Shown in pieces: positions 38,849 through 62,112 of a stretch of DNA of 64,000 nucleotides. The notes under the pieces were generated by a model that ran no database searches, was not told where the DNA came from, and worked only from the letters and a program-made list of their open reading frames with translations. The stretch lies in the NCBI GenBank assembly GCA_963974055.1, contig CAXBCP010000001.1:191471-255470 (forward strand). Reading direction: 5' to 3'. This DNA comes from an uncultured Rhodospirillaceae bacterium (GTDB lineage Bacteria > Pseudomonadota > Alphaproteobacteria > MPNO01 > UBA830). The position numbers and the translations under genes are program-made. How positions within the stretch are numbered: position 1 is the stretch's first letter; each line of letters begins with the position of its first letter.

Positions 38849-38985
38849 ACTGTATTCCGGCTGGGATCGGATGAGTGTTGGAATAGGTCAGAAAACCTCG
38901 TGACGCAACGTCCGACGTCCTGATAACTGGTCGGGCCGTATATAGTTGGACTTGCATCCAGTGAACTTGGGTAGGAGAAAAGGCC

Positions 38986-40683
38986 ATGAAAACTTTGCCT
39001 GATCTGTGGCGTACCGTAATGCCGTTCGCGGCAATGCTGTTTGCCGTCCTTGCCGTCATTTTTTTCGGATCAGGTACCTCGGCCGATATGAGGGTGAAGC
39101 TCAAGGATGGGCGCGTCCTGAATTTGCCGGTCACGCCCGACCAGATCGATTCCGTGACCTTCGGTTCCGGTCCAGCCGGGCCGGTCCCGGCAGAATCGGG
39201 CGCAATGCGCCGGAAACAGCCGGTCGGCCGGGCGGCGGCTCAGATCAAGGCAGACGAAAAAAGTATCCGGACATCGCGGGATGCCGAAAAGCGGGCACTG
39301 GACGCGGCGAAGGCAGCCGGCGCGGCAGCCGATACCGCCCGCGCCGCCGCCGCCCTGGCGGAACGGGAAGCGGCGGCCGCCACAGCGGCGCGGAAATCGG
39401 CGGAAGAGGCAGCGCGCGCCGGCCCCGCTGCAACCCCCGGCCCGGCATCGGCCTTGAATTCGTCGCCGCCGGTTCGCCGCAGTACCGGTAAGCCGGTCAG
39501 GGCGGCGGGGCGTGTCCTGAATATCGGCCCCGGAAAAAAGTACAAACGCCCCAGCGACGCGGCCGGCGCGGCGCAGGACGGAGACACGGTTGAAATCGCC
39601 GCCGGCACCTATAAGGGAGATGTCGCGCAATGGACCGCCAGCAACCTGACGATCCGCGGCGTCGGCGGCCGCGTGCACCTGGATGCGGATGGCCGGTGTC
39701 AGGCGGGCAAGGCAATATGGGTTATCAGCGGCAATGACACCGCAGTCGACAATATCGAGTTTTCGAATTGCCGTGTTCCCGACCGGACCGGTGCCGGCCT
39801 TCTCTTTGAAGGCCGCAATCTGGCGGTGCGCAACAGTTTCTTTCACGACAACGATATGGGGCTTGTGACCGGCAACCGGCAGAAAGGCGACGTGCTGGTC
39901 GAAGGGTCCGAATTCGCCCGCAACATGGCGCCGGATAAAAATGGGCTCGGCCACAATATCTATATCGGCCGCGAGCGCAGCTTTATCCTGCGCAACAGCT
40001 ATGTACACGGAGCGGTCCGGGGCCATGACATCAAATCGCGCGCCCGCGAAAACCGGATATTGTATAACCGCATCGTCGATGGGCCGGCCGGCGCGGCGGG
40101 TTACCTGGTCGATATTGCCGAAGGCGGCCGCGCCTGGCTGGTGGGTAATGTGTTTCACAAGAGCGCCCGGGCGGGCAACCGTCCCGTGGTCAGCTTCGCC
40201 GCGGAGCGGCGGGCCGCCGCCGACCGGATCGCGCTGATCAACAATACGCTCGCCAACGAATTCGACGGCGGCGTCTTTATACAGAACAGGGGTGGCGCGG
40301 CGGCCATACTGATCAACAATATTCTGGCCGGTCCCGTCGATCCCGCAACGGGCCCGGCCGAACTCCGTAACAATCTGATCGTCCGCAACAATCCGATGAT
40401 CCGTCCGCCAACGGCATCGGGCGGCCAGCCGGTAAAGGCATCGGCCGGGAAAGGCCCGCTGTCGGGGAATTTCATCGCGCCCGAGGCGGGTTTCACGAAC
40501 CCCGGTCAAATGGACTTTTCTCTGTCCCGCCGCTCGCCGGCGCGCAATACCGGTGCGGAACCGGGGCTGGTAAATCGGTGGCCGGCGCGCCCGTCCGCGC
40601 ACTATCTTCATCCGCGCCGCCAGGCGCCGCGGCCGAATGACGGCAGGATCGATATCGGCGCCTATGAATATTCGGCCCCGTAG
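38986..40683 (+). CDS. secreted/membrane-anchored right-handed parallel beta-helix protein with Ala-rich coiled linker
   Basis: AGGAGA SD before the ATG. An N-terminal TM/signal (MPFAAMLFAVLAVIFFGSG) is followed by an Ala/Glu-rich ~100 aa segment, then beta-helix coils (NIEFSNC, RNSFFHDN, RNSYVHG, NNTLANE, NNILAG, RNNLIVRNN). The terminal IDIGAYEY motif is common in this fold. Confidence 0.7.
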   Translation: MKTLPDLWRTVMPFAAMLFAVLAVIFFGSGTSADMRVKLKDGRVLNLPVTPDQIDSVTFGSGPAGPVPAESGAMRRKQPVGRAAAQIKADEKSIRTSRDAEKRALDAAKAAGAAADTARAAAALAEREAAAATAARKSAEEAARAGPAATPGPASALNSSPPVRRSTGKPVRAAGRVLNIGPGKKYKRPSDAAGAAQDGDTVEIAAGTYKGDVAQWTASNLTIRGVGGRVHLDADGRCQAGKAIWVISGNDTAVDNIEFSNCRVPDRTGAGLLFEGRNLAVRNSFFHDNDMGLVTGNRQKGDVLVEGSEFARNMAPDKNGLGHNIYIGRERSFILRNSYVHGAVRGHDIKSRARENRILYNRIVDGPAGAAGYLVDIAEGGRAWLVGNVFHKSARAGNRPVVSFAAERRAAADRIALINNTLANEFDGGVFIQNRGGAAAILINNILAGPVDPATGPAELRNNLIVRNNPMIRPPTASGGQPVKASAGKGPLSGNFIAPEAGFTNPGQMDFSLSRRSPARNTGAEPGLVNRWPARPSAHYLHPRRQAPRPNDGRIDIGAYEYSAP

Positions 40684-40686
40684 AAC

Positions 40687-41532
40687 CTAACTGCCGAGAG
40701 TGTCGACCCAGTCGATCGTCAGCGTCGCAACCTCGTCGCGCCAGGCGCGGCGGGAAAACGTGTGGTCGGCGGCAGGCATGTCGCGCCGGGTCAGCCGGTG
40801 GGCGGCGACGAGCCTGCGCCACCGCGGCGAGGCCTTTACGGCGTCGTCGAATTCCCGCGCCGTCAGATCGTTTCCGCTCATGATCAGCAGGACCGGCTGC
40901 GCGAATTTTTCGAGCCCGTCCGCCATCCGGTCCGCCAGGGGGTTTCTGGCGGCGGTATCGGCGCCGCTTTCCGCATGTGCGGCTTTCACTGTGCCCATCA
41001 ACGAACCCGCCGAGCCCGTCAGGTCGAACCGTCCGCGAAGAATCTTGCCCCATAGCGCCCGGCTGAAAATCCGGCTGAGGTAATAGTGGCGAAGCTGGGT
41101 TTTGGCATACCCGCTTTCGCTGCGGACCCAGGGATTCAGCAGCACCGATCCTGCGATGCGACGATCGGCATGGGCGTAGAACAGGATCGCGGACGCGGCA
41201 TCGCACAGCCCCCACAATACGATTTCCTGTATCTCCGGGAGCGCGGCGGTAAAAGCATCCGCCGCGGCGCGAATGTCGTCGTCGATGTTTTCGAATCCGG
41301 CGAACGTGCCGCCGCTGTCGCCGAGCCCGCGATAGTCAAACCGCATTGCCGCAATGCCGTTCTCCGCCAGGGCGCGTGCGAGCAGCAGGAACTGGCGATG
41401 GCTGCCGGTTCGGTATTGCGGGCCGCCGACGACGATCAGCACACCGCGTTTGGCGGGCCGGCCGGGCCGGTGCACGATACCGACAAGGTCGGCATCGCGG
41501 CATTTGAAGGAAACCGGTATTTCTTCGGTCAT
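40687..41532 (-). CDS. alpha/beta hydrolase (exosortase A system-associated hydrolase type)
   Basis: 281 aa from MTEEIPVSFKC. Nucleophile elbow GLCDAAS; HTF near the C-terminus. Its start overlaps the stop of the upstream hydrolase by 4 nt. Confidence 0.7.
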   Translation of the reverse strand: MTEEIPVSFKCRDADLVGIVHRPGRPAKRGVLIVVGGPQYRTGSHRQFLLLARALAENGIAAMRFDYRGLGDSGGTFAGFENIDDDIRAAADAFTAALPEIQEIVLWGLCDAASAILFYAHADRRIAGSVLLNPWVRSESGYAKTQLRHYYLSRIFSRALWGKILRGRFDLTGSAGSLMGTVKAAHAESGADTAARNPLADRMADGLEKFAQPVLLIMSGNDLTAREFDDAVKASPRWRRLVAAHRLTRRDMPAADHTFSRRAWRDEVATLTIDWVDTLGS

Positions 41533-42344
41533 AGCTGCTGCAACGCCTGAAGCGTCCGGTCGATCATCTCCGGCGCCGTGGTGGTTTCCTGAATCGTCCA
41601 GAACGGTTCGCCGGGGCACAGCCGGATATCGATACGGATACCGCTTTCGGTCCAGGCGTCGATGATACGCTGGCTTGCCGGCATGGGCCCGCGTTCCGCG
41701 TCGCCGGTCTCTATCCAGATGACGGTGCTGCCCGGCCGGGGCGTCATATCCGCCAGCCGCAACACATCCAGATCCGCTGCCAGATCGGGATGAATTTCAT
41801 ACCCGGCGACCTCGACGCTTTCGCCTGCCTGCCACATTGCGCGCAGGTCCCTGGTGGTTTCTTTCGCACCGCTGCCCGCCGGACCGCCCGTCAGGCCGGC
41901 GGCCATACGGATGCGCAGGAACTGGTTCAGCATTGTTTCGCCATTGCCCACCGGCTGCCACAGGATCAGCGGTTGGGCCCGGTTGAGGCTCGCGGCGAGT
42001 AGCGCGCCTGCCCGCAGCCCGAAGGAAACCGGCATCTGTCCGGTTTTCTCGGCCAGCCAGAGACCCGCTGAACGGGCGTCTTCCTGCCAGGTTTGCCAGC
42101 GGGCGTCGTAGAAATCGCCGCTGCTGTCGCCGGTGCCCGTCAGGTCGAGCGCCAGGACGCCGTAGCCTGCACCCGCCAGAGCACGCCCGGTCAGATAGGT
42201 CATCCGCCGCGACATGTTCATTTCTTCGGCAAAGGGCGGCAGCAACAGGACGCTGCCCCGGGCCTCATTCTGAGCGGGGTGGTACAGCGCGAACAGCCGT
42301 CGGTCGCCGATCTCGATAAACAGGGGTTGGGGCGCTGCGGTCAT
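41529..42344 (-). CDS. alpha/beta hydrolase (exosortase A system-associated hydrolase type), second paralog
   Basis: 271 aa: LLLPPFAEEMNMSRR...GTGDSSGDF... Minimal alpha/beta hydrolase fold. Co-oriented downstream of the ACP gene. Confidence 0.7.
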   Translation of the reverse strand: MTAAPQPLFIEIGDRRLFALYHPAQNEARGSVLLLPPFAEEMNMSRRMTYLTGRALAGAGYGVLALDLTGTGDSSGDFYDARWQTWQEDARSAGLWLAEKTGQMPVSFGLRAGALLAASLNRAQPLILWQPVGNGETMLNQFLRIRMAAGLTGGPAGSGAKETTRDLRAMWQAGESVEVAGYEIHPDLAADLDVLRLADMTPRPGSTVIWIETGDAERGPMPASQRIIDAWTESGIRIDIRLCPGEPFWTIQETTTAPEMIDRTLQALQQL

Positions 42345-42378: not shown

Positions 42379-42630
42379 TCACGCGGCCAGCTTCTGGTCC
42401 ACGAATTCGGTCAGGCTGCCGACGGATTCAAATGATTCGGCCGAAATTTCGTCGTCTTCGACGAATATATCGAATTGTTCTTCCAGCGCCGTGATCACCG
42501 TGACGACGGCCATCGAGTCGAGTTCGGCTATACTGCCGAGCAGCGGCGTGGATGCCGTGAAATTGTCGACCCTGTCTCCGAGTTGAAGGGTTTCCCCCAA
42601 CACCTGCTTCACGACGTCGATAGTTGCCAT
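42379..42630 (-). CDS. acyl carrier protein
   Basis: 83 aa. The phosphopantetheine attachment motif is LGSIAELDSMAVV (DSM variant of DSL). Four-helix ACP-like composition. Confidence 0.75.
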   Translation of the reverse strand: MATIDVVKQVLGETLQLGDRVDNFTASTPLLGSIAELDSMAVVTVITALEEQFDIFVEDDEISAESFESVGSLTEFVDQKLAA

Positions 42631-42753
42631 TACATTTGCCCCGTACGCATAAATTCATCATTTCAATCAGGTCTTTATATTCCACGCGCGGCGTCTGGAC
42701 AAAGACCAATCGTGGTATCCTTACCGTTATCGGAGCGATCATCGGGAACTTTC

Positions 42754-43461
42754 ATGCGCGTCATTCGTAAATTCAGGGGGTTGGCCGCCGAGTTCGGCTT
42801 TGGCAATGCAGTGCTCTACGTCTTCGGGCTGGCGCTGCGGGGGATATGCCCCGGTGCATCCGTTTATCGCTATTACATCGTTGCGCAGCCGGTGCCGGAC
42901 AAAAACCTGCTGCCGGCCCGGCGCGGCAAGGCGATTGCGGTCCGCGAGCTGAAACCCGGCGATCCGGCGTTTTCGGCCCTGCCGCTCGATCAGGACGTTC
43001 TGGCCTACCGCTTTGCCCAGAACGTGGTCTGTCTCGGCGCGTTCCAGAACGAAAAGCCGATCGGCTGTCTGTGGATGTGTTTCGATTCCTATGACGAAGA
43101 CGAAATCAGGTGCACTTTCCGCCTCGCTCCCGTCGGGCGTGTCTCCTGGGATTTCGACGTTTATCTGCACCCCGACGCGCGGCTCGGTTTTGCCTTTCTG
43201 CGGCTATGGGACGAAGCGAACGCGATTTTGCGCGACCGGGGTATCGCCTGGTCGCTCAGCCGTATTTCCGGCTTCAACCCGGGGTCGATGGCGTCCCATG
43301 CCCGCATGGGGGCGGTTCGCGTGGGAAGTCTGATTGCGCTGAAAGGCCCGAAAAGGCAGCTCGTCTGGAGCACTTATTCGCCCGTTTTCAGCTTCCGGCG
43401 GCTCGACGGAAACCTGCCTTCCTATACCGTTTCTCCGCCCGGGCATGCGGAGACGCGTTGA
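42754..43461 (+). CDS. GNAT-fold acyltransferase-like protein (candidate N-acyl amino acid synthase type)
   Basis: 235 aa from MRVIRKF. Size and position match the small acyltransferase found with ACP and ligase genes in exosortase loci. No strong motif was seen, so the assignment is tentative. Confidence 0.45.
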   Translation: MRVIRKFRGLAAEFGFGNAVLYVFGLALRGICPGASVYRYYIVAQPVPDKNLLPARRGKAIAVRELKPGDPAFSALPLDQDVLAYRFAQNVVCLGAFQNEKPIGCLWMCFDSYDEDEIRCTFRLAPVGRVSWDFDVYLHPDARLGFAFLRLWDEANAILRDRGIAWSLSRISGFNPGSMASHARMGAVRVGSLIALKGPKRQLVWSTYSPVFSFRRLDGNLPSYTVSPPGHAETR

Positions 43462-43519: not shown

Positions 43520-45091
43520 ATGCTGCTACATGAACTAATCCGAGATTCCGCCCGGCGGACGCCGTCGGCCGACGCGTTGCAGTTCCGCGACGACGTGTGG
43601 AGTTATGGCCGCCTGCACGACGAAGTTCAGCGCTTCGCCGGGTGTCTGGCGGGCCTGGGCGTCGCGCGGTCCGACCGGGTGGCGGTGTTTCTCGACAAAC
43701 GTTTCGAGACGGTCGTCGGCACGTTCGGTGCGGCGGCGGCAGGCGCCGTGTTCGTGCCGGTCAATCCGATCCTCAAGCCGGCCCAGGTCGGCCATATCCT
43801 GACCGACTGCAATGTCCGGGTACTGGTGACCTCTGCGGCGCGCCTGACCGCGCTGGTGGAAACGCTCGGCGACTGCCCCGATCTCCGACACGTTATTCTG
43901 ACCGACGGCACGCCGGCCGATCACAGGGTCGCAGGCGTGGCAATTCACGGCTGGGACGATCTGAATCCCGGCGGCGTGCCCCATGCGGTGATCGACGACG
44001 ATATGGTGTCGATCCTGTATACGTCCGGCAGCACCGGGCGGCCCAAGGGCGTGGTGCTGTCGCACCGGAACATGGTGGCCGGCGCGGTCAGCGTCAGCAC
44101 CTATCTGGAGAACGTACCCGAAGACCGGATTCTCTGTGTCCTGCCGTTCAGTTTCGACGCCGGCTACAGCCAGCTGACGACCGCGTTCCGCGTGGGTGCC
44201 TGCGCCGTGCTGATGAACTACCTGTTGCCCAACGACGTGGTAAAAACCGCGGCGGCGCAGCGCATAACCGGGATCGGCGGCGTGCCGCCGCTCTGGAACC
44301 AGCTCGCCGGGCTGACCTGGCCCGAAGACGCGGTTGCGACCATGCGCTATTTCACCAATACCGGCGGCCACATGCCGCGCGCGACCCTTGACCGTCTGCG
44401 CGGGTCCCTCGTCAACGCGAAACCCTATCTGATGTACGGGCTGACCGAAGCGTTCCGGTCGACCTATCTGCCCCCGGAAGAGGTCGACAACCGGCCGGAT
44501 TCCATGGGCAAGGCGATCCCCAATGCCGAAATCCAGGTCGTCAACGAAAAGGGCGAAATCTGCGGCGCCGACGAGCCCGGCGAACTGGTGCATCGCGGCG
44601 CGCTTGTCTCGCTCGGCTACTGGAACGACCCGGAGCGCACCGCCGAACGGTTCAAGCCCGCACCGGGCCAGTTATCGGGTCTGCCGATGACCGAGTTCGC
44701 GGTCTGGTCCGGCGATACCGTCCGCAAGGATGCCGACGGCTTCCTCTATTTCGTCGGCCGCCGCGACGAGATGATCAAAAGTTCCGGTTACCGGATCAGT
44801 CCGACCGAGCTCGAAGAGGTGGTTTATTCCTCCGGTGCGGTCAGCGAAGCGGTGGCGCTGGGGCTGCCGCATCCGATGATCGGCCAGGGCATCGTGATTG
44901 TGGCGACCCCGCCGCCGGACGGTGCGCTGGATGCCGAGGCCGTCCTGAAAGCCTGCCGCGCGGACCTGCCGCAATTCATGGTGCCGCATGCGGTTGTCGA
45001 ACGGGCCTCGCTCGACAGGAACCCCAACGGTAAGATTGACCGCAAGAAGCTGTCCGAAGAACTGGCCGGCTTTTTCGAGGAGGAAGTGTGA
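43520..45091 (+). CDS. AMP-dependent acyl-CoA/acyl-ACP ligase (adenylate-forming enzyme)
   Basis: AMP-binding signature ILYTSGSTGRPKGVVLSH. Also YGLTE and the C-terminal GDTVRKDADGFLYFVGRRDEMIKSSGYRISPTELE. Confidence 0.85.
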   Translation: MLLHELIRDSARRTPSADALQFRDDVWSYGRLHDEVQRFAGCLAGLGVARSDRVAVFLDKRFETVVGTFGAAAAGAVFVPVNPILKPAQVGHILTDCNVRVLVTSAARLTALVETLGDCPDLRHVILTDGTPADHRVAGVAIHGWDDLNPGGVPHAVIDDDMVSILYTSGSTGRPKGVVLSHRNMVAGAVSVSTYLENVPEDRILCVLPFSFDAGYSQLTTAFRVGACAVLMNYLLPNDVVKTAAAQRITGIGGVPPLWNQLAGLTWPEDAVATMRYFTNTGGHMPRATLDRLRGSLVNAKPYLMYGLTEAFRSTYLPPEEVDNRPDSMGKAIPNAEIQVVNEKGEICGADEPGELVHRGALVSLGYWNDPERTAERFKPAPGQLSGLPMTEFAVWSGDTVRKDADGFLYFVGRRDEMIKSSGYRISPTELEEVVYSSGAVSEAVALGLPHPMIGQGIVIVATPPPDGALDAEAVLKACRADLPQFMVPHAVVERASLDRNPNGKIDRKKLSEELAGFFEEEV

Positions 45092-46353
45092 GCGACGCTC
45101 CCGAAGCCAGGAAACGCGAAAAACCGAAACCGGTCACGGCGCCGATAGAACAGTTCCCGGTCGAGAACGGGGACCTTGTCATCGGCGGCGTGCCGTTATC
45201 CCGTCTGGCCCGTCAGATCGGGGCGACGCCGTTTTTCGCCTATGACCGCGATCTGATCTCGCAACGGATCGCCCATCTGCGCGAAATCCTGCCCGATGGC
45301 GTGAACCTGAATTTCGCGATGAAGGCGAACCCCATGCCGGCCGTCGTGCAGCATGCCGCGGGACTGGTCGACGGAATTGACGTCGCCTCCGCCCTCGAAA
45401 TGAACGTGGCGCTCGACACCACCATGCCGCGCCATCGCATCAGTTTCGCCGGGCCCGGCAAGACCGAGGCGGAGATCGCGCGCGCCGTAGCGGCGGGGAT
45501 CGTGCTCAATCTTGAATCCGCGAACGAAATGGAAATCGTTGCCCGCCACGCCGCGGAACAGGGTGTCGTGGCGCCGGTCGCCGTTCGGGTGAATCCGGAT
45601 TTCGAACTCAAGACGTCCGGCATGAGGATGAGCGGCGGGCCGAAGCAGTTCGGTGTCGATGCCGAATGCGTGCCCGACATGCTCCGGCGCATGGGCGAAC
45701 TGCCGACCCTGGAATTTCATGGCTTTCATATATTCAGCGGTTCGCAGAATCTGCGGGCGGAAGCGCTGATCGAAGCCCAGACGAACACGGTCGATCTTGC
45801 AATCGCGCTGGCGGCCGTTGCGCCCGGACCCGTAAGACACCTCAATATCGGCGGCGGGTTCGGCATCCCGTATTTCCCCGGCGACACGCCGCTCGACCTC
45901 ACGCCGGTTGCCGAGAATCTCGACGGATTGATGGCGCGGATCAAAACCGAGCTGGGCGATGTCCGCGTCGTTATCGAACTCGGACGCTATATCGTCGGCG
46001 AGGCCGGCATCTATGTCAGCCGGATCGTCGACCGCAAGGAATCGCGCGGAAAGGTATTCCTGATCACCGATGGCGGGCTGCATCATCAGCTCGCTGCATC
46101 GGGCAATTTCGGGCAGGTGATCCGGAAGAACTATCCCGTCGCGATCGGCAATCGCATGGACGAGCCGGCGACCGAAACCGCGGACATCGTCGGCTGTTTG
46201 TGCACGCCGCTCGATCTTCTCGGCGACAAGGTGGACATACCGGCGGCCGCGGTCGGCGACCTTGTGGTGCTGTTTCAGTCGGGCGCCTATGGGCTGACGG
46301 CCAGTCCCACGGCTTTTCTCAGCCATCCGGTGCCGCTCGAGGTGCTGGTTTGA
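45088..46353 (+). CDS. PLP-dependent decarboxylase, Orn/DAP/Arg decarboxylase fold-III family
   Basis: GTG start overlaps the ligase stop (GTGA). Motifs as in diaminopimelate decarboxylase: NFAMKANP with the PLP-lysine, GGGFGIPY, and the C-terminal CTPLD. Confidence 0.85.
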   Translation: MSDAPEARKREKPKPVTAPIEQFPVENGDLVIGGVPLSRLARQIGATPFFAYDRDLISQRIAHLREILPDGVNLNFAMKANPMPAVVQHAAGLVDGIDVASALEMNVALDTTMPRHRISFAGPGKTEAEIARAVAAGIVLNLESANEMEIVARHAAEQGVVAPVAVRVNPDFELKTSGMRMSGGPKQFGVDAECVPDMLRRMGELPTLEFHGFHIFSGSQNLRAEALIEAQTNTVDLAIALAAVAPGPVRHLNIGGGFGIPYFPGDTPLDLTPVAENLDGLMARIKTELGDVRVVIELGRYIVGEAGIYVSRIVDRKESRGKVFLITDGGLHHQLAASGNFGQVIRKNYPVAIGNRMDEPATETADIVGCLCTPLDLLGDKVDIPAAAVGDLVVLFQSGAYGLTASPTAFLSHPVPLEVLV

Positions 46354-48233
46354 CGGGACTCGTCGGATGGGCCGGCGCGGGTCGGTCGGGCGACCACGTT
46401 TACGAGCTTTCTTCCCCCGATATCGTCGCCCGGATGCTCGATGCCGGACATGCGCATGAAGGATCGGCACGGCAGTCGGAAGCGGTTGCCGCTGCCGGTA
46501 TCGGCGCGCAGGGCTGGTCGTCCGACGTTTCCGTGCACAGCGCCGGGGATATCCTTGCCGTCGTTTACGGCCGGGCGCGGTGGCGCGGCGAAAAATACAG
46601 GCAGCGTGCGGTCGCGCAGGGCGGCGCAGCGGCCCTTATCGAAGCCTGGCGCGACAAGGGAATATCGCTGTTCGATATTGTCGGCGGTCCGGCGTCTTTT
46701 GCGATCGTCGATTCCGCCCGGCATGAAGCGCTGGTCGCTATCGATCGTATCGGTGTCCAGCAGATGTCGTTTGCAACAACCCCTGCCGGGGCATTTGTCT
46801 TTGCATCCGATGCGCGGGCTGTCTGCAGTCATCCGGCGCTCAACCCGGATATTTCCCGTCAGGCATTGTTCAATTATCTCTATTTTTATATCAGCCCGGG
46901 ACCGGCAACGGTTTTCGAGGATATCGAAAAGCTCCAGCCCGGACAGTATGCCCATTTCCGCAACGGCGCGGTGTCGCGGTCGTTCTATTGGCAGCCCGCA
47001 TATACCGAATTCTCCGACCGCGATGACGGGGCCTGTGCCGAGCAGGTGCGCGACAGCCTGAGGGACGGTGTCGGGGCGGCGGTGGCCGCGGTTCCCGGTG
47101 CAGAGCCGGGCGCCTTTCTGAGCGGCGGGCTCGACAGCACGTCGGTTGCGGGTTATCTGGCCGGCCACCGGCCCGGGGCGAAGGGTTTCACGATCGCCTT
47201 CCCGGAAGAAAAATACAACGAACTGCCCTGGGCGGAGGCGGGTGCCCGGCGGTTCGGCATTGATCATGTCACACATGTGCTGACGCCGGCGGAAACGGTG
47301 GACGCGATTCCGGGAATCGTCGAGGCGCATGACGAACCCTATGGCAACTCGTCGTCCGTGCCGGCTTATATCTGTGCGCGGGTGGCGCGGGATAACGGGG
47401 TCGGGCTTCTGCTTGCCGGCGACGGCGGCGACGAAATATTCGCCGGAAACGAGCGCTACGTCGAGCAGCGCCGCTACGATGCATGGCGCCGTATCCCGTC
47501 ACCGTTCCGCAGGTTACTGCACGGACTGCTGCTCAACGGGGCCGGCCGCAATACGGGCGACGGCGTGCTGGCGCGGGCCACCGCCTATGCAAACCGGGCG
47601 GAGACACCGCTGCCCGACAGGCTGCAGGCTTACAACATCATCGCGACATCTGGATTGTCGCGTCTGTTCCATCCCGATTTCCTGGCGGCGATCGACCCCG
47701 GAGAGCCGCTGCGGATCGCGCGCGAGATCTATCACCGGCCCGACGGCGCTACGGAGCTGAAACGTATGCAGTTTCTCGATCTCCACATAACGCTTGCGGA
47801 TAACGATCTGAGGAAGGTCAACAGGGCGTGCGAGCTCGCCGGCGTCCGCGTCGCCTATCCGATGCTTGACGAAGACCTCGTTTCGTTTGCGGCGGCGATC
47901 CCGTCGGCAACGTTGTTGCCCCAGCGCCGGCTGCGCGGCTTCTACAAGGACACGATGGCAGGGTTTTTGCCGCCGGAAATTCTGAGCAAACAAAAGCACG
48001 GCTTCGGCATGCCGTTTTCCGAATGGACCCGCGCGCCGGGCGATCTTCGCGATATGGCCGAAGAGGGGCTTCGGGCTTTTGCGACCCGCGATATTCTTGC
48101 GGACGGGATTATCGACGAGATCCGGTCCGATCTGACCGGCGTCCGAGAAAGCCGGTTCGGCGGGCTGATCTGGGACGTCATGATGCTGGAATTGTGGCTG
48201 TCGCGTCATTCAGATATTGCGACACTACATTGA
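46350..48233 (+). CDS. asparagine synthase (AsnB) family protein lacking the N-terminal catalytic cysteine
   Basis: TTG start overlaps the decarboxylase stop (TTGA). The N-terminus is (M)TGLVGWAG; canonical AsnB begins MCGIAGW. The C-terminal synthetase domain is intact (FLSGGLDSTSV PP-loop, ELPWAE..., YKDTMAGFLPPEIL). The 855-aa ORF-track frame is the same reading frame read through the preceding gene. Confidence 0.7.
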   Translation: MTGLVGWAGAGRSGDHVYELSSPDIVARMLDAGHAHEGSARQSEAVAAAGIGAQGWSSDVSVHSAGDILAVVYGRARWRGEKYRQRAVAQGGAAALIEAWRDKGISLFDIVGGPASFAIVDSARHEALVAIDRIGVQQMSFATTPAGAFVFASDARAVCSHPALNPDISRQALFNYLYFYISPGPATVFEDIEKLQPGQYAHFRNGAVSRSFYWQPAYTEFSDRDDGACAEQVRDSLRDGVGAAVAAVPGAEPGAFLSGGLDSTSVAGYLAGHRPGAKGFTIAFPEEKYNELPWAEAGARRFGIDHVTHVLTPAETVDAIPGIVEAHDEPYGNSSSVPAYICARVARDNGVGLLLAGDGGDEIFAGNERYVEQRRYDAWRRIPSPFRRLLHGLLLNGAGRNTGDGVLARATAYANRAETPLPDRLQAYNIIATSGLSRLFHPDFLAAIDPGEPLRIAREIYHRPDGATELKRMQFLDLHITLADNDLRKVNRACELAGVRVAYPMLDEDLVSFAAAIPSATLLPQRRLRGFYKDTMAGFLPPEILSKQKHGFGMPFSEWTRAPGDLRDMAEEGLRAFATRDILADGIIDEIRSDLTGVRESRFGGLIWDVMMLELWLSRHSDIATLH

Positions 48234-48299
48234 TCGTTTGCTTTTTGGGGCTATTATGCAGCCCGACATTTGGTGAGTTACGTTTGGTCGCGACAAAAA

Positions 48300-48935
48300 A
48301 TGGTGGGCGAAATGTTGTGGAATAGGTTTGGCGGAGCGCTGATGGTGCTGTGCGTGGCGGCTCTGGCAGGCTGTTCCTCGCTTGAGGAACTTCCGACGGC
48401 AAAGCCCGTTTCCGAGACGGAAGAGCTCGAGACCGAATACCGGATCGGCTCCGACGATTCGCTTCAGATATTCGTCTGGCGGAACCCGGAACTGTCGAAC
48501 AGCGTTGCGGTGCGTCCCGACGGCAAGATAACTATTCCGTTGATCGAGGACCTGCCTGCGACCGGCAAGACGCCGACCGAGCTGGCCCGCGATATCGAGA
48601 AACAGCTCAGCGTTTATATTCAGGACCCCATCGTCACCGTCATTATGCGGGGATTTGTCGGTCTGCCGAAGGACAGGGTCCGGGTCGTCGGCGAAGCGGC
48701 GCAGCCCCAGGCGCTGCCATACCGGTCGACGATGACGTTGCTCGATATCATGATCTCCGTCGGCGGGCTTACCGATTTTGCCGATGGCAACCGCGCCACC
48801 ATATCGCGGCTGGTCGACGAGGACTTGAAGCAGTTCCGGGTGCGGATCGACGACCTGCTTCGCGCCGGCGACATGTCGGCGAATGTCCGGATCATGCCGG
48901 GCGACGTTATCGTTATCCCCGAAGCGTGGTTCTGA
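48300..48935 (+). CDS. polysaccharide export outer-membrane lipoprotein (Wza/EpsE-like, PEP-CTERM-locus type)
   Basis: Lipoprotein signal ...VLCVAALAGC. Poly_export motif YRIGSDDSLQIFVW...PDGKITIPLI. A SLBB domain follows. Start could be ATG 48300 or 48312. Confidence 0.8.
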   Translation: MVGEMLWNRFGGALMVLCVAALAGCSSLEELPTAKPVSETEELETEYRIGSDDSLQIFVWRNPELSNSVAVRPDGKITIPLIEDLPATGKTPTELARDIEKQLSVYIQDPIVTVIMRGFVGLPKDRVRVVGEAAQPQALPYRSTMTLLDIMISVGGLTDFADGNRATISRLVDEDLKQFRVRIDDLLRAGDMSANVRIMPGDVIVIPEAWF

Positions 48936-49428
48936 TCCGACAGGACGGTGCCGTTGGCTGCAAAAATGTTGCAGTTTGTTGCAGCGATATCCATCTCCCA
49001 TTCTGCGCGGCTTTCCGTTTGCATATATATTACATGATTGGAAATTGTGTCCTGACGGTGAAAGTTGCATAAGCTGTTGATAAACAACAATATTCTGGGG
49101 CTGTTGGCTACCGCCCCGGCGCGGCGTTCCGGCCGGCCGCGGGGGCGACCGTCTCTCTTCATGGTTAACGGCGGCCCGATCATGTTATTGAATTTGTAGA
49201 GAATTGTTGCTAGTTTACGAATTGTAGGGTGATAGTGGGTTAGATGTGGACAGCTATCTATCTAGGTGAACTGGGCGCTGGCTGAATATCGGCGGCGCTC
49301 GCGTATTTGAGTAGGCAATGTGGTGTGTAGAGTGTCTGGGATCCGCGTATTGCGAATGAATGGGCCACGGAAGCAAGGCGTCCGTCGGTCGGCAGTTGTC
49401 TTAAGCCGTAAGTGGGGGGGGCACGTAG
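48936..49428. promoter_or_regulatory. 493-bp AT-rich intergenic region upstream of epsF with direct repeats (candidate regulatory region)
   Basis: GTTGCAG occurs twice, 3 nt apart, at 48964-48980. A TTGCATATATATTACATGA element lies at 49017-49035. Direct repeats GAATTTGTAGAG and GAATTGTAGGG occur at 49190-49201 and 49219-49229. A G8 tract precedes the epsF ATG. Confidence 0.3.
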
Positions 49429-51051
49429 ATGAGTGAATTATACGTACAAATCCTCGCTTATCTTACGTCTATCTGGCGCAGGCGGTGGTATGCGCTCGCA
49501 ATTTCTTGGCTGGTCTGCGGTGCCGGCTGGACAATGGTTGCCGGCCTTCCCGACAAGTATGAATCCCAGGCCCGTGTTTATGTCGACATGGATACGATGC
49601 TTGGCCCGCTGATGAAGGGCATCGCGGTCCAGGTCAACATGTTCCAGCAGATCGACATCATGCAGCGTACGCTGCTGAGCCGCCCCAATCTTGAAAAGGT
49701 CATTCTGATGACCGACCTCGACCTCAAGATAAAATCGGAAGGCGAGAAAGAAGCGCTGATCGAGAAACTCGCGAATTCGATTTCGATTCGCCAGCAGGGT
49801 CGCAACCTGTTCCGGGTCGCCTATGACGACCGTGAGCCCGCGATCACAAAGCGCGTCGTTCAGGCGGTGTTGCAGATTTTCGTCGAGAGTAATCTGGGGT
49901 CCAGCCGAAAGGATATGGATTCCACGCGGCGTTTCCTGTCCGACCAGATCAAGGATTACGAACGCCAGCTCGAACTTGCGGAAAACAAACTCGCGACCTT
50001 CAAACGCAAAAATCTCGGCATGCTCCCCGGCGAGGGAAACTATTATTCGCACATGCAGGCCATGCGGGCGCAGCACAAGCGTACCGAAGCCCAGATTGCG
50101 GAGGCATCGACCGTTCGCGACGAACTGAAGCAGCAACTGACTTCTGTGCCGCAGTTTCTCGAACTCGCGGGCGGCATGCCCGATATCGCGCTTGCGTCCT
50201 CTGCGGGGGAAGGTCCCGAATCGGATACCCAGATCAGGATCTTCGAGTTGCAGAAGGTCGTCGACAATCTGTTGACGCGCTACACCGACAAACATCCCGA
50301 TGTGGCAACCACGATCAAGCGGCTTGAGGTTCTCAAGAAAGAGCTTGCCGACGAACGCAAGGCCGAATTCGGCCCGACCGATCAGGCGCCCGTCGAACAG
50401 GCGGCTGAAGCCGGCAAGAACGTGGTGCCCAATCCGGTCTACGAACAGGTCAAGATACAGCTCGTCCAGCAGGAGGCGGCGATTGCCGCGTTCAAGCGGC
50501 GCGCCGAAAAGGAAGGCGTCGACGTTAAAAAGTGGGAACAGCTGGCCGGCCGCGTGCCGCAGGTCGAGGCCGAGCTTTCCCGGCTCTCGCGCGATTACGA
50601 AATCGTCAAGAGAGGTTACGAGGAATTGCGCCAGCGGCAGGAATCTGCCCGGCTTGCTTCGGACATGGAAACAAAGGCGCAAAAGGTCCAGTTCCGCATT
50701 GTCGATCCGCCCAAGCTTCCGCTTAAGCCCAGCGGTCCCAACCGGCCTCTTTTCATGGCCGTGGTCCTTGTTGCCGGACTCGGCGCCGGACTGGCATTTG
50801 CCTTCCTGCTGGGACAGGTCAATTCGACCTTCCAGACGGTGCAGCGCCTGCGCCTGACCTTCGCTCTGCCGGTGCTGGGTTGTGTGACCGCAATTACGTC
50901 GGTCGGCGAACGCCGCCGCCGGCGTCGCGAGTTGCTCGGTTTCGGGCTGGTTGCGGCAAGCTTGATCGTTGCTTTCGGTGGGCTCCTCATGGTTGAAGTT
51001 ATGGGGGCAAATGGCTTGCTAGCGACCGTCAAGGGGCTTAGCATCGTCTAA
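49429..51051 (+). CDS. polysaccharide chain length determinant protein (Wzz/EpsF-like, PEP-CTERM locus subfamily)
   Basis: 540 aa. An N-terminal TM (WYALAISWLVCGAGWTMVAGL) is followed by a long coiled-coil periplasmic region and a C-terminal TM (LFMAVVLVAGLGAGLAFAFLLG). Confidence 0.8.
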   Translation: MSELYVQILAYLTSIWRRRWYALAISWLVCGAGWTMVAGLPDKYESQARVYVDMDTMLGPLMKGIAVQVNMFQQIDIMQRTLLSRPNLEKVILMTDLDLKIKSEGEKEALIEKLANSISIRQQGRNLFRVAYDDREPAITKRVVQAVLQIFVESNLGSSRKDMDSTRRFLSDQIKDYERQLELAENKLATFKRKNLGMLPGEGNYYSHMQAMRAQHKRTEAQIAEASTVRDELKQQLTSVPQFLELAGGMPDIALASSAGEGPESDTQIRIFELQKVVDNLLTRYTDKHPDVATTIKRLEVLKKELADERKAEFGPTDQAPVEQAAEAGKNVVPNPVYEQVKIQLVQQEAAIAAFKRRAEKEGVDVKKWEQLAGRVPQVEAELSRLSRDYEIVKRGYEELRQRQESARLASDMETKAQKVQFRIVDPPKLPLKPSGPNRPLFMAVVLVAGLGAGLAFAFLLGQVNSTFQTVQRLRLTFALPVLGCVTAITSVGERRRRRRELLGFGLVAASLIVAFGGLLMVEVMGANGLLATVKGLSIV

Positions 51052-51066
51052 CTTCGGGGTAGGCGA

Positions 51067-52905
51067 TTGACCGATAATGATTCACCGCGTCGCGGGGCGA
51101 CCGAGGGCGGAAATTCTTCTTCGCCCCCATCTTCGTCTGTTGAAAAAGCGGCCGAACGGATGACCCGTGATCCCGGGGCAGACCGGAAAACAGGCGTTGG
51201 GAACGACTCTCCTCCGCAACGGCAGAACCCGGCGAGCAGCATAGAGCGTTTTCTGGATACGGCTGACGGCGGCGTCGCCGACGAGGGGCCCTCCGGCCCG
51301 GCCCGGTTCCAGGATCCCGGCGCCGACTCGGATGTGCCCGCCCGGAACACCCACATTCCGCAGGACGAGCCCGGACCCGGTTTGGATGCCGATTCAGCAT
51401 GGCGTGGTCCTGCCGCCGCCCCGCCTCCGCCACAGGGGCTTCCGGAGCATGGACAGCCGCCGCAATATGCGCCGCCGCCCGGGGCGGGAGATTCGTCTTA
51501 TCCGCAACCCAATCCGGAATCGGTGGAGGGGCCGCCTCCCGGTGCCCGGCCTGACGAGACGCCGCCTGCCGCTCCCGATTACCCCGAACATGCTCCGGCG
51601 CAGTCACCGGTAACGGATCCCGCGGCCGCTGCCGCGGCAGCGATGACCCCCGCCGTAAAACGGAAAGGACTGCTCAGGCGTCGGAGGAAAGCGACGAAGC
51701 CCTGGCATCGCGATCATGCCGCCGACGCGGCTTCAGCGGATGAGGCCGTCGGCAGCGTCCCGCCCGGCGATCCGCGCGATGTGGCACGTTCCGGCAACCC
51801 TGCCGCTGCTGCCGCTCCGCGCCGTCGTGGGATATTCGGTCTGTTCTGGGCCATGATCCGTTTTCTTCTGATCGGTAAAAAGCGCTTAAATGCGCCCAGG
51901 CCGGCCACACCCCGCGGCACGCCGCGTCTTCCGAAATTGGGGCGGCTCCCGGGGTTGTCGCGGCTCAGGGGCATGGGTATTCCCGTTTTGGCTCTTGCGG
52001 GGCGGGTGCCCGGATTCGGAAAGTTAAGACGATCCGCGGCTTCCGCTGTTTCCGCGGTATCAGACAGCGCGTCCGGAAACCCGCGTCCCGCGCCCGTCGA
52101 AACGGCAATGCAGATCCGGCGAAACGCGGCCGGGTCGCATATTCATCGGCCGCTCGATATGAGCCGGCGCGTTGGCCGGTCGGTCGAAATCGACCTCGAA
52201 AAGATCCAGGCGGCCGGCATGGTCACGCCGTTCGGCGAACGCACGCATATCGCGGAGGAATTCCGCCTTATCAAGCGCCCGCTCCTGCTGAACGCCTTCG
52301 AAAAAGGACCCAACGCCATCCGCAACGGGAATGTCATCATGGTCGCGAGTTCGCGTTCCGGTGAAGGCAAGACGTTCATGGCGGTGAACCTCGCCATGAG
52401 CATTGCTTCTGAACGCGATCTGACGGTTCTGTTGATCGACGCCGACGTTGCGAAACCCGATATTCCGAACGTTCTCGGGTTCGAAGCCGATCTCGGCCTA
52501 GTCGATCTGATTGCCGATGACCGCATCGATATGTCCGATGTGATCATGCGAACCAATATCGAGAATCTCAGCGTGATGCCGGCCGGCCGGCCACATCACC
52601 TCGCGACGGAACTGCTGGCCAGCGAACGGATGGGCAATCTGGTATCGGAGCTTTCCCTCCGGTATCCCGAGCGTGTCGTCATTATGGATTCCCCGCCCGC
52701 ATTGCTCAGCAGCGTGGCGGGAGTTTTGGCGCTCAATGTCGGCCAGACGTTGTTCGTCGTCGAGGCCGAGCGGACCTCCCAAACGGCGGTCGATAGTGCG
52801 ATAGGTCTTGTTAGTGCTTGCAAAAACATCAACCTCTTGCTCAATAAGAGTCGCCCGCTTGGGGGCGGCGAACGTTTTGGGTCCTATCAGAACAGCTACT
52901 ATTGA
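51067..52905 (+). CDS. BY-kinase-type P-loop ATPase (EpsG-like tyrosine autokinase) with ~330-aa proline-rich insert
   Basis: TTG start with a GGGGTAGG SD. N-terminal SSVEKAAERM motif. A proline-rich low-complexity region spans roughly aa 40-370. The C-terminal kinase has Walker A SRSGEGKTF, A' VLLIDADV, Walker B VIMDSPP, and a terminal Tyr cluster YQNSYY. Confidence 0.7.
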   Translation: MTDNDSPRRGATEGGNSSSPPSSSVEKAAERMTRDPGADRKTGVGNDSPPQRQNPASSIERFLDTADGGVADEGPSGPARFQDPGADSDVPARNTHIPQDEPGPGLDADSAWRGPAAAPPPPQGLPEHGQPPQYAPPPGAGDSSYPQPNPESVEGPPPGARPDETPPAAPDYPEHAPAQSPVTDPAAAAAAAMTPAVKRKGLLRRRRKATKPWHRDHAADAASADEAVGSVPPGDPRDVARSGNPAAAAAPRRRGIFGLFWAMIRFLLIGKKRLNAPRPATPRGTPRLPKLGRLPGLSRLRGMGIPVLALAGRVPGFGKLRRSAASAVSAVSDSASGNPRPAPVETAMQIRRNAAGSHIHRPLDMSRRVGRSVEIDLEKIQAAGMVTPFGERTHIAEEFRLIKRPLLLNAFEKGPNAIRNGNVIMVASSRSGEGKTFMAVNLAMSIASERDLTVLLIDADVAKPDIPNVLGFEADLGLVDLIADDRIDMSDVIMRTNIENLSVMPAGRPHHLATELLASERMGNLVSELSLRYPERVVIMDSPPALLSSVAGVLALNVGQTLFVVEAERTSQTAVDSAIGLVSACKNINLLLNKSRPLGGGERFGSYQNSYY

Positions 52906-52932
52906 CCCGTAGCGGTTCGGGCGGAGGGTCGG

Positions 52933-54429: not shown

Positions 54430-54439
54430 GCGCCAGTAC

Positions 54440-55375: not shown

Positions 55376-55422
55376 GCCGGGCAGGGAACCGGCAGATAAC
55401 CTTGGCAGATCGTTCGAACGCC

Positions 55423-56241
55423 ATGACGGTCGACGTGGAAGATTATTTCCAGGTCAGCGCCTTTTCAGCCCGCATTTCGCGTGACGACTGGGGAAACCTG
55501 CCCTGTCGTGTCGAACAGAACACCAACCGGGTTCTCGACATCTTCGCCGAAGGCGGCGCCAAGGCGACTTTTTTTACACTCGGCTGGGTGGCGGAGCGCT
55601 ATCCGCAGTTGATCCGCCGTATCGCGGACGAAGGTCATGAAGTGGCAAGCCATGGAATGGCGCATTTCCGGGTTGGAGACCAGACGCCTGACCAGTTCCT
55701 TGAGGATATCTCCAAAACCCGCAAAATCCTGCAGGATGTAAGTGGCCAGCCCGTCATCGGATACCGGGCGGCCAGTTTCTCGATCGGTGTGGACACCCTG
55801 TGGGCGCATGACGTCCTGGCGGAAGCGGGGTACTCCTACAGCTCCAGCGTTTATCCGGTACGCCACGATCATTACGGGATTCCGGATGCGCCGCGGTTTC
55901 GGTATGTCCCGAATGCCGGCACGGCGCTCACCGAACTGCCGATGACTACGGTCAAGCTGTTCAACCGGAACCTGCCCTGCTCGGGCGGCGGTTTTTTCCG
56001 GCTGCTGCCCTATGGGTATTTCCGCTGGGCAATCGGCAAGGTGAACCGCGAAGAACAGCAATCGACAATATTTTATTTTCACCCCTGGGAAATCGATACC
56101 GACCAGCCGCGCCAGGACGGCCTCAGCGCGAAAACCCGTTTCCGGCATTATGTGAATATCAGCCGGATGGCACCGCGGCTGCGCAGGATGCTGAAGGATT
56201 TTTCCTGGGACCGTATGGACAGGGTCTTTGACGTCGCCTGA
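55423..56241 (+). CDS. polysaccharide deacetylase (NodB-fold, XrtA-associated type)
   Basis: Starts MTVDVEDYFQV. NodB motifs: TFFTLGWVAERYP, HEVASHGMAHF. An alternative GTG start lies at 55372. Confidence 0.8.
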   Translation: MTVDVEDYFQVSAFSARISRDDWGNLPCRVEQNTNRVLDIFAEGGAKATFFTLGWVAERYPQLIRRIADEGHEVASHGMAHFRVGDQTPDQFLEDISKTRKILQDVSGQPVIGYRAASFSIGVDTLWAHDVLAEAGYSYSSSVYPVRHDHYGIPDAPRFRYVPNAGTALTELPMTTVKLFNRNLPCSGGGFFRLLPYGYFRWAIGKVNREEQQSTIFYFHPWEIDTDQPRQDGLSAKTRFRHYVNISRMAPRLRRMLKDFSWDRMDRVFDVA

Positions 56242-60177: not shown

Positions 60178-62112
60178 ATGTGCGGAATTACAGGCCTGTT
60201 CGACACCGTCGGTCGCAGCGAGATCGATCGCGGTTTGTTGACGCGCATGAATGACAGCCATCGTCACAGGGGCCCGGACGGAGACGGTGTGTTCCTGGAC
60301 GACGGTATCGGCCTGGGACACCGCCGGCTTTCGATTATCGACCTTTCGGGCGGCGCGCAGCCGTTGTTCAACGAAGACGAATCCGTCGTCGTCGTCTTTA
60401 ACGGCGAGATCTATAATTTTCAGGAGCTTTCCAAGGAGCTGATCGAAGCCGGTCACCGGTTCCGGACCCACAGCGACACCGAAGTCATCGTGCATGCCTG
60501 GGAAGAATGGGGACAGGCCTGCGTCGACCGTTTCCGCGGCATGTTCGCCTTTGCGCTTTGGGACCGGAAGAAAGAAACGCTGTTCCTGGTGCGCGACCGT
60601 CTCGGGATCAAGCCCCTGTATTATGCGGTCCTCCCCAACGGGACCCTTATTTTCGGTTCCGAGCTGAAATCGCTGCTGCTGCATCCGGCCTTCGAGCGGA
60701 AACTGGACCCGACCGCGGTCGAGGAGTATTTCGCCTATGGATACGTTCCCGACCCGAAAACCATCTATGCCGGCGCGCACAAGCTTGCTCCCGGCCATCT
60801 GATCAAGTGGCGCCGGGGCGACAGCCGCCCGCGGCCGCAAAAGTACTGGGATATCAGCTTCGATCCGTCGGACCACCGGGACGAAGGCGAAATCTGCGAA
60901 GACCTGATCGAACAGATGCGCGAAGCGGTAAAACTGCGGATGATCGCCGATGTGCCGCTCGGCGCGTTCCTGTCCGGCGGGGTGGATTCCAGCGCCGTTG
61001 TCGCGATGATGGCGGGCGAGGACAGCGATCCGGTGAATTCCTGCTCGATATCCTTCGCAGACCCGAAGTTCGACGAATCCCGATATGCCCAGACGGTGGC
61101 CGACCGGTACGGAACGGATCATTTCGTCGACCAGGTCGATCCCGACGCCTTCGATCTCGTAGACCGTCTGGCGAATATGTATGACGAACCGTTCGCGGAT
61201 TCATCCGCGATGCCGACTTACCGGGTATGCGAACTGGCCCGCAAACGGGTTACCGTCGCCCTTTCCGGCGATGGCGGCGACGAAATCTTCGCCGGTTACC
61301 GCCGCTACCGATGGCATGATTATGAGGAACGGGTCAGAGGGATTTTACCCGATGCGATCCGCAAGCCGCTCTTCGGGTTTCTCGGCGCCGCCTATCCGAA
61401 AATGGATTGGGCGCCGAAACCGCTGCGGGCGAAATCGACCCTTCAGGCGATCGGGCGCGATACGGTAGGCGGTTTTTTCCACAGCGTGTCCGTGTTGTAC
61501 GACGGCGTCCGGCAGCCCATCTACAGCGATGCGTTTCGCAACGATCTCCAAGGGTACCACGCGCGGGAGGTGCTCGATAACGTCATGGCAGATGCGCCGG
61601 CCGACGACCATACGTCCCGCGTGCAATACGCCGATCTCAAGACCTATTTGCCGGGCGATATTCTGACCAAGGTCGACCGGGCGAGCATGGCACATTCGCT
61701 GGAAGTGCGTGTGCCGTTGCTCGATCACAAATTCGTCGAATGGTCGGCGCGGCTTCCGTCCGCGCTCAAGCTGCGTGGCCGCGAAGGGAAGTATATTTTC
61801 AAGAAAGCGCTGGAACCGCATCTCGGCAATGACATCCTCTACCGTTCCAAGATGGGATTTTCCGTACCGCTGGGCACCTGGTTCAGGGGACCGCTCAGGG
61901 AACGGGTCGAGACGGCGCTGTGCGGAGAGACACTGGCGGATACGGGCATGTTCGACGTAAACCAGTTGAAGACAATCGTTTCCGAGCACCAGTCGGGCGT
62001 GCGCGAACATTCTGCGGTCATGTGGGCGCTGCTGATGTTTGAGAGTTTTCTCCGGCAGGTGCACAATGAGGCTGGAATACCGGAAAATGTTTCGAACCCG
62101 GCGGATGCCTGA
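60178..62112 (+). CDS. asnB: asparagine synthase (glutamine-hydrolysing), XrtA/PEP-CTERM system amidotransferase type
   Basis: Starts MCGITGLFD with the Cys2 nucleophile. PP-loop FLSGGVDSSAV. 644 aa. Confidence 0.9.
   Translation: MCGITGLFDTVGRSEIDRGLLTRMNDSHRHRGPDGDGVFLDDGIGLGHRRLSIIDLSGGAQPLFNEDESVVVVFNGEIYNFQELSKELIEAGHRFRTHSDTEVIVHAWEEWGQACVDRFRGMFAFALWDRKKETLFLVRDRLGIKPLYYAVLPNGTLIFGSELKSLLLHPAFERKLDPTAVEEYFAYGYVPDPKTIYAGAHKLAPGHLIKWRRGDSRPRPQKYWDISFDPSDHRDEGEICEDLIEQMREAVKLRMIADVPLGAFLSGGVDSSAVVAMMAGEDSDPVNSCSISFADPKFDESRYAQTVADRYGTDHFVDQVDPDAFDLVDRLANMYDEPFADSSAMPTYRVCELARKRVTVALSGDGGDEIFAGYRRYRWHDYEERVRGILPDAIRKPLFGFLGAAYPKMDWAPKPLRAKSTLQAIGRDTVGGFFHSVSVLYDGVRQPIYSDAFRNDLQGYHAREVLDNVMADAPADDHTSRVQYADLKTYLPGDILTKVDRASMAHSLEVRVPLLDHKFVEWSARLPSALKLRGREGKYIFKKALEPHLGNDILYRSKMGFSVPLGTWFRGPLRERVETALCGETLADTGMFDVNQLKTIVSEHQSGVREHSAVMWALLMFESFLRQVHNEAGIPENVSNPADA

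Follow-up and report, generated by a model that had tools for sequence, protein, structure and literature searches.

A Cys-less AsnB-family paralog in an XrtA/PEP-CTERM exopolysaccharide locus, predicted to be a glutamine-independent amide synthetase

Enzymes of the AsnB superfamily that combine a dead glutaminase with a live adenylating domain are already known as a kind. Beta-lactam and carbapenam synthetases are AsnB homologues without the Cys nucleophile which still adenylate a carboxylate and form an amide, and LtsA/AsnB1 is an AsnB-family protein responsible for amidation of the meso-diaminopimelate (meso-DAP) carboxylate in a cell-wall pathway. Canonical asparagine synthetases depend critically on their N-terminal Cys, which is also needed by TsnB9 and FzmA, two homologues that use gamma-glutamyl-bound donors (PMC6133997). 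AsnB homologues of glycan loci, such as WbpS/PGN_1234 and WbmC/I/Z, have been proposed to amidate uronic-acid carboxylates (PMC7468200; PMC2615507). The gene considered here lies at 46350-48233 of a 64-kb window (the whole stretch of DNA analyzed, 64,000 nucleotides of contig CAXBCP010000001.1 from an uncultured Rhodospirillaceae bacterium), and encodes an AsnB-family protein with Thr in place of the Cys nucleophile. NCBIfam has no dedicated model for the family to which it belongs, and its product is probably a glutamine-independent, ATP-dependent amide synthetase of an AsnB branch specific to exopolysaccharide (EPS) loci of the XrtA/PEP-CTERM type. All coordinates below are positions in the window, whose annotated part, containing the EPS locus, is 27-64 kb. 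The gene and its parts are:

46350..48233, + strand: coding sequence of the AsnB-family paralog with a predicted dead glutaminase, 627 residues plus a stop codon at 48231-48233, from the open reading frame (ORF) and its translation
46339..46353, + strand: gene junction, with GAGG (Shine-Dalgarno-like) at 46339-46342, a 7-nucleotide spacer and a TTG start overlapping the TGA of the decarboxylase gene (TTGA, 46350-46353)
46350..46376, + strand: N-terminal motif (M)TGLVGWAG, in the register of canonical MCGIxG, with Thr at the Cys nucleophile
46350..46934, + strand: degenerate N-terminal nucleophile (Ntn)/class-II glutaminase-like domain, residues ~1-195, with the fold kept and the catalytic and glutamine-binding residues lost
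46566..46583, + strand: YGRARW in place of canonical NGEIYN (oxyanion-hole/glutamine-binding motif), with only the Gly and the aromatic residue kept
47046..48203, + strand: asparagine-synthase (ATP pyrophosphatase) domain, residues 233-618 (PF00733, 8.7e-65)
47121..47138, + strand: PP-loop SGGLDS, residues 258-263, for ATP binding/adenylation
47415..47435, + strand: AGDGGDE motif, aligning with SGEGSDE of E. coli AsnB
47988..48008, + strand: KQKHGFG motif, with conservation of the Lys that aligns with K449 of E. coli AsnB

The initial annotation had aligned this N-terminus with the canonical motif and read the change as Cys to Thr, and the same reading was obtained when 56 family members were aligned with 16 canonical enzymes (the paralog in the window, 14 Cys-bearing genes from genomes, and E. 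coli AsnB, the reference for numbering, whose sequence is identical to PDB 1CT9 residues 2-553). The register with MCGIxG is supported because G3 (50/56), L or I at position 4 (51/56), G6 (56/56) and W7 (54/56) are conserved in the family. Position 2 is occupied by Thr in 32 aligned members, Ser in 14, Ala in four and Gly in two, never by Cys, compared with Cys in 16/16 canonical sequences. The canonical set also has RGPD, R49, L50, D54, N74, G75, E76 and D98 throughout, and I52 in 15/16 (Val once). In the family, R49 is substituted, mostly by Gly, and the adjoining L50-I52-D54 segment is deleted; N74 is replaced by Y or E and E76 by R or another residue, D98 is deleted, and RGPD is lost, leaving an invariant G75 and an aromatic residue at position 78 as the only glutaminase positions still kept. 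The residues needed to bind or hydrolyse glutamine are thus substituted or deleted in all 56 aligned members, and the loss extends to the whole glutaminase site, beyond the Cys-to-Thr change alone. Canonical glutamine binding or hydrolysis by the protein is very unlikely, because the equivalents of R49, N74, E76 and D98 have gone along with the Cys; the earlier proposal that glutamine is not used had therefore understated its own case.

In profile searches, the AsnB models of NCBIfam and Pfam start matching the protein only at residues 87-113. TIGR01536 gives 204.7 bits against a cutoff of 267.1, with the match beginning at residue 103, GATase_7 (PF13537) is marginal (25.4 bits against a threshold of 25), and no NCBIfam model reaches its cutoff, the best being TIGR03108 with 255.8 vs 816.9 bits over residues 91-619. 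In the N-domain, only 12% of columns reach 90% conservation, most of them Gly, Trp or core positions, and the AlphaFold (AF2) model, which was built from the family alignment, is confident in this domain apart from residues 13-16. Most likely, the N-domain survives only as a structural domain that would be unable to hydrolyse glutamine.

The synthetase half presents the opposite picture. It had been described as intact, PP-loop included, and this held throughout the family: PF00733 matches with 220 bits (gathering threshold 21), and S258, G259, G260, D262, S263, D358, G359, G360, D361, E362, D484, D486, R488, K489, K547, K549, G551, F552 and G553 are invariant in the 56 members, as are the motifs SGGLDS, DEPxGNSS, AGDGGDE, LADNDLRKV and KxKHGFG across the family. 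The residue aligning with E. coli E348 is Asp, likewise in the TIGR03108-type paralog. The proportion of columns conserved at 90% or more reaches 22% (88/398), vs 12% in the N-domain. The protein retains, as far as motifs can tell, everything required for ATP-dependent carboxylate adenylation. In the AF2 model (pLDDT 92.1, pTM 0.91) the two-domain AsnB fold is kept, and Foldseek matched both domains to TsnB9, E. coli AsnB, human ASNS, beta-lactam synthetase and carbapenam synthetase, with E-values from 3e-26 to 2e-15 over ~640-660 aligned columns. Among solved structures, sequence comparison puts TsnB9 (82.7 bits, rising to 152 with the family profile) and AsnB closest.

Comparison with the described systems places the protein nearest to, and yet apart from, the TIGR03108 amidotransferases. 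Both share the two-domain "long" AsnB architecture, the type of locus, the synthetase motif set and Asp at the E348 position; however, the N-domain and the synthetase domain share only 20% and 26% identity, respectively, with the TIGR03108 paralog in the window, the score is far below the model cutoff, and TIGR03108 proteins keep Cys1, RGPD, R49, N74, E76 and D98, which the family lacks. TsnB9 (PDB 7YLZ), a hydroxyamidotransferase, is the closest solved structure by both sequence and fold (TMq 0.70, TMt 0.76) and is likewise an AsnB homologue that amidates a carboxylate other than aspartate, but it acts in natural-product biosynthesis, not in EPS loci, and its N-terminal nucleophile and pocket are missing here. 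Because TsnB9 and FzmA both depend on the N-terminal Cys, they offer no mechanistic model for the N-domain of this family. E. coli AsnB (1CT9) and human ASNS resemble the protein in fold (TMt ~0.7), PP-loop, the K449-aligned Lys and the acidic residue at 348, and differ by the glutaminase residues, which it lacks, and by an insertion of ~90 residues typical of the long AsnB clade, which it has. The beta-lactam (1JGT) and carbapenam (1Q15) synthetases have the same combination of a Cys-less N-domain and an adenylating PP-loop domain (TMt 0.65-0.72) and serve as the mechanistic precedent, although they give only 44.5 bits with the family profile, confined to the PP-loop region, and carry out intramolecular ring closure in antibiotic pathways. 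Beta-lactam synthetase (BLS) has a catalytic Tyr/Glu dyad. WbpS/PGN_1234 and WbmC/I/Z, compared here by description only, are similar as AsnB homologues of glycan loci but are treated as glutamine-dependent in the papers cited above.

When 1.84 billion cluster representatives were scanned in full with HMMER, using only the N-domain as query and E <= 1e-10, 304 clusters (50% identity) fell into the family. Members were found in Alpha-, Beta- and Gammaproteobacteria, Acidobacteriota and one Nitrospirae metagenome-assembled genome (MAG). The replacement at position 2, first noticed in a single gene, recurs across them: among the 77 listed cluster representatives that carry the N-terminal motif, this position is Ser in 42, Thr in 14, Ala in 6, Asp in 4 and Gly in 3, with a few other residues and a single Cys. 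Public databases name the members "asparagine synthase (glutamine-hydrolysing)", "asparagine synthase-related protein" or "asparagine synthase C-terminal domain-containing protein", names that are generic or wrong. No paper characterising any member was found in literature searches, and the text of Haft 2006 (PMC1569441) contains no mention of asparagine, an amidotransferase, a decarboxylase, an acyl carrier or a ligase.

Outside the clade of the window, most members read MSGICGW or MTGLCGW, with Cys at position 5 in 55/77 representatives, and the window clade has Val or Ala there. The idea that this Cys5 is the true nucleophile, exposed after loss of a four-residue propeptide, was examined and rejected: G3, I/L4, G6 and the aromatic residue at 7 all fall into place in the in-register alignment, canonical enzymes may carry Cys5 as well (MCGICG in loci L071 and L075), Val or Ala stands in the window clade, and members with Cys5 also lack the glutaminase pocket. 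A newly evolved active site in the N-domain was likewise unsupported, as conservation there is confined to Gly, Trp and core residues plus a GRxRW that is itself only partly conserved.

The genomic setting of the gene is distinctive. From ~27 kb on, the window is an XrtA/PEP-CTERM EPS locus, in which glycosyltransferases, a Wzx-like flippase, a Wzy/O-antigen-ligase-like protein and an epimerase precede a cassette of exosortase A system-associated genes. The AsnB-like gene is followed at 48270-60124 by genes for an export protein, a chain-length determinant, a tyrosine kinase, a TIGR03016 outer-membrane protein, an ATPase, a deacetylase, a FemAB-like protein, a TIGR03087 glycosyltransferase and XrtA (XrtA-EpsI), and then by a second AsnB, which had been said to keep MCGITG and is indeed a clear TIGR03108 member. 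The cassette and this paralog comprise:

40687..41619, - strand: alpha/beta hydrolase 1, exosortase A system-associated (TIGR03100), model match
41529..42344, - strand: alpha/beta hydrolase 2, exosortase A system-associated (TIGR03101), model match
42379..42630, - strand: acyl carrier protein (ACP), 83 residues, with an ELDSM motif, from an ORF; the ortholog in locus L081 carries a weak PF00550
42754..43461, + strand: 235-residue cassette protein, probably GNAT-like, syntenic in loci L001, L081 and L082
43520..45091, + strand: AMP-forming acyl-CoA/ACP ligase, exosortase A system-associated (TIGR03098), 763 bits vs cutoff 592
45088..46353, + strand: pyridoxal phosphate (PLP)-dependent decarboxylase, exosortase A system-associated (TIGR03099), 601.6 bits vs cutoff 478
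60178..62112, + strand: canonical Cys-bearing paralog, XrtA/PEP-CTERM amidotransferase (TIGR03108), MCGITG, 1068 bits vs cutoff 817

The ACP lies between hydrolase 2 and the divergently transcribed operon of GNAT-like protein, ligase and decarboxylase, and in its motif Met replaces the usual Leu after the Ser. The 235-residue protein of the window has no Pfam or NCBIfam matches; more than 120 homologs were found, a few of which are named GNAT or N-acetyltransferase by their sources, with PF00583 recorded for two. The mechanical ORF at this place (42475-43461) is longer than the conserved protein.

The start codon of the AsnB-like gene overlaps the stop codon of the decarboxylase gene by four nucleotides, and in the window the two are predicted to be translationally coupled. 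This overlap is kept as GTGA in the window clade (L081, L082, L083) and occurs as GTGA or ATGA in two betaproteobacterial loci (L026 and L030); it is limited to these, most lineages having a gap of 10-340 nucleotides between the two genes. The gene order of the window is repeated in a Kiloniellaceae MAG (L001) and in the metagenomic loci L081 and L082, whose orthologs have 59% and 71% identity.

A wider view was provided by 63 family loci, examined over +/-9-10 kb around the gene, which had XrtA-type EPS genes throughout. Neighbours included GT1 glycosyltransferases (40 loci), deacetylase-like proteins (29), O-antigen-ligase-like proteins (23), ACP (19), hydrolases (18), Wzx (17), the decarboxylase (14) and the ligase (13). 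A canonical paralog lies within 10 kb of the gene in ~12 family loci. Loci of the window clade invariably have the gene immediately after the ligase-decarboxylase pair, and a family gene directly follows the decarboxylase in the window and in L001, L014, L026, L030, L053, L081 and L082. In the reverse direction, 80 metagenomic loci with a decarboxylase alignment were retrieved, and counts were made in the 55 that extend 2.5 kb or more downstream: a family member follows directly on the same strand in 14, lies elsewhere in the locus in 6, and is missing from 35. A Cys-bearing AsnB directly adjacent to the decarboxylase was seen in none of the loci examined; in L084, the Cys-bearing AsnB is 8.9 kb upstream of the decarboxylase and a family member is directly downstream. 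The link to the acyl cassette is real, recurs across classes and is facultative, and obligate membership of the cassette is ruled out by the tests in both directions (14/63 and 20/55). The earlier assignment to an amide-forming step in the acyl module fits the window clade but cannot be extended to the family as a whole. For the family it is safer to speak of membership in XrtA/PEP-CTERM EPS loci, where a tie to the acyl cassette is frequent but facultative.

The loss of the glutaminase site, the kept adenylation motifs, the fold and the genomic association are established; for the activity of the enzyme, its nucleophile and its substrate, we infer the following scheme. The intact PP-loop domain would use ATP to activate a carboxylate as an acyl-adenylate, which would then be resolved by a nitrogen nucleophile from a source other than glutamine hydrolysis by the same protein. 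Free ammonia, ammonia from another protein (for example the canonical paralog) and an organic amine are the candidates, and the organic amine is favoured because of the coupled PLP decarboxylase and the ACP, ligase and GNAT neighbours. In the favoured reading, the amide would be formed on a precursor, either a small molecule or a sugar, used to decorate or link the EPS. By inspection, the N-terminus of the protein has no signal peptide, and it would therefore act on a cytoplasmic precursor. Several observations weigh against this scheme. The canonical glutamine-using paralog in the same locus could supply ammonia in trans. Because the cassette linkage is facultative in both directions, a substrate deduced from the cassette may apply to some lineages only. 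Finally, Ser or Thr at position 2 in 73-82% of members leaves a small possibility that the N-domain has kept a nucleophile-dependent function.

The main rival is ammonia-dependent primary amidation, in which a carboxylate, such as an EPS uronic acid, would be converted into a primary amide with free ammonia or with ammonia delivered in trans from a hetero-oligomer with the TIGR03108 paralog. It is possible, though clearly less probable than the favoured scheme. It would agree with the intact synthetase site, with TIGR03108 as the best curated match and with the canonical paralog found in this locus and near some other family members. In addition, uronamide synthesis has been proposed for TIGR03108/PGN_1234-type enzymes (PMC7468200; PMC2615507), and the conserved floc-formation cluster of Zoogloea and Aquincola is reported to have two asparagine synthetase genes (PMC9012009), which may be such a pair of one canonical and one Cys-less enzyme. 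However, a plain primary amide could be made by the canonical paralog itself, and the maintenance of a glutaminase-dead copy over hundreds of lineages suggests some other reaction; the synthetase-site motifs also differ consistently from those of TIGR03108 (DEPxGNSS vs DEPFADSS, LADNDLRKV vs LPGDILTKV).

A more elaborate version of amide synthesis with an organic amine would involve the whole cassette. Here the synthetase, the ACP, the AMP-ligase, the GNAT-like protein, the DAP-decarboxylase-like enzyme and the two hydrolases would build an amine-bearing acceptor, an EPS or lipid linker, for exosortase A-mediated transfer of PEP-CTERM proteins, with the synthetase coupling an amino compound to a carboxylate and the decarboxylase exposing or creating a free amine. 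This remains a speculative and doubtful extension.

Intramolecular cyclization of the beta-lactam synthetase, carbapenam synthetase or lasso-cyclase type, in which adenylation would be followed by ring closure through the substrate's own amine, seems quite unlikely. Such enzymes have the defining loss of the Cys nucleophile in common with the family, their structures (1JGT/1MC1 and 1Q15/1Q19) are among the Foldseek matches, and weak NCBIfam matches to lasso (NF033535, 84.5 bits) and macrolactam (NF033561, 71.6 bits) models were obtained; but these scores are far under the respective cutoffs of 525 and 300, TIGR03108 and TsnB9 are much nearer to the family than BLS or CarA are, and the context is one of polysaccharide export and assembly, with no lasso precursor, B-protein, clavam or carbapenem genes in the annotated 27-64 kb of the window.

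It is even less probable that the Thr or Ser left at the N-terminus once Met is removed acts as an Ntn nucleophile and splits a donor other than glutamine to free an amine for the synthetase site. Thr or Ser is present at position 2 in 46/56 aligned members and 56/77 representatives, the oxyanion-hole G75 is invariant, and AsnB homologues with non-glutamine gamma-glutamyl donors exist in TsnB9 and FzmA (PMC6133997). The latter two retain Cys, however, and N74, R49, E76 and D98 are all gone in the family. Something other than Thr or Ser, such as Ala, Gly, Asp, Arg or Asn, stands at position 2 in approximately 20-25% of members, the motif is missing entirely in some, N-domain conservation is low and of a structural kind, and Ser and Thr are anyway the nearest small substitutes for a buried Cys.

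An artefact (a miscalled start, a sequencing error or a pseudogene in decay), which might be suspected from the rare TTG start (literal N-terminus L(M)TGLVGWAG) and from a frame open upstream as far as 45666, is a negligible prospect given a full-length ORF with invariant catalytic motifs and the evidence that follows. The stretch before 46350 overlaps the decarboxylase gene in another frame and reads Arg-rich, and the TIGR03099 gene there is full length, matching its model to the last position. Orthologs at 40-79% identity have 619-630 residues and the same start position, and in-frame stops occur 0-18 codons before the homologous start in ten loci (L050, L048, L040, L003, L004, L039, L008, L014, L053 and L001). 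The start codon is secure because of these stops, the conserved four-nucleotide overlap and the fact that the upstream DNA encodes the end of TIGR03099, and an upstream start that would supply a Cys, which had been raised as a possible objection, is ruled out on the same grounds. Sequencing error is ruled out by a 100% identical protein in the independent Tara Oceans data set (P0001) and by the recurrence of the N-terminus in hundreds of orthologs.

Although glutamine is not a usable donor for them, the members almost certainly still form amides at the expense of ATP, and the family bears on the chemistry of XrtA/PEP-CTERM systems, both the attachment target of the sorted proteins and the decoration of EPS. 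A common mis-annotation as glutamine-hydrolysing asparagine synthase is corrected, and the two "asparagine synthetase" genes of floc and biofilm clusters would be split into two functionally different enzymes. It would also provide a tractable biochemical entry, as a single soluble enzyme for which carboxylate and amine substrates can be screened.

Several minor features were observed in and around the locus. A trypsin/DegP-like serine protease gene (62113-62967, + strand) begins right after the stop codon of the TIGR03108 paralog, which suggests that the two may be co-translated. In the tyrosine autokinase gene (51067-52905, + strand; 612 residues), TIGR03018 covers residues 386-593 only, and the unannotated N-terminal region of ~380 residues appears to be real because the orthologs in L081 and L082 have 610-649 residues as well. 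The latter two loci contain a gene of 576-593 residues without Pfam matches between the UDP-GlcNAc 2-epimerase and a beta-helix protein (L081 837-2567 and L082 707-2488, both - strand); it is absent from the window, where the epimerase gene (37754-38848) adjoins the beta-helix gene (38986-40683) with a gap at 38849-38985. The first ~23-27 kb of the window are unrelated to the EPS locus and include ABC and TRAP transporter genes, a luciferase-like monooxygenase and a 684-residue protein with an N-terminal half similar to the acyltransferase SucT, at a score far under the SucT cutoff. In two of the family loci, L015 (11674-16572) and L055 (984-6026), the pair of hydrolase 1 and hydrolase 2 occurs in duplicate beside the Cys-less AsnB.

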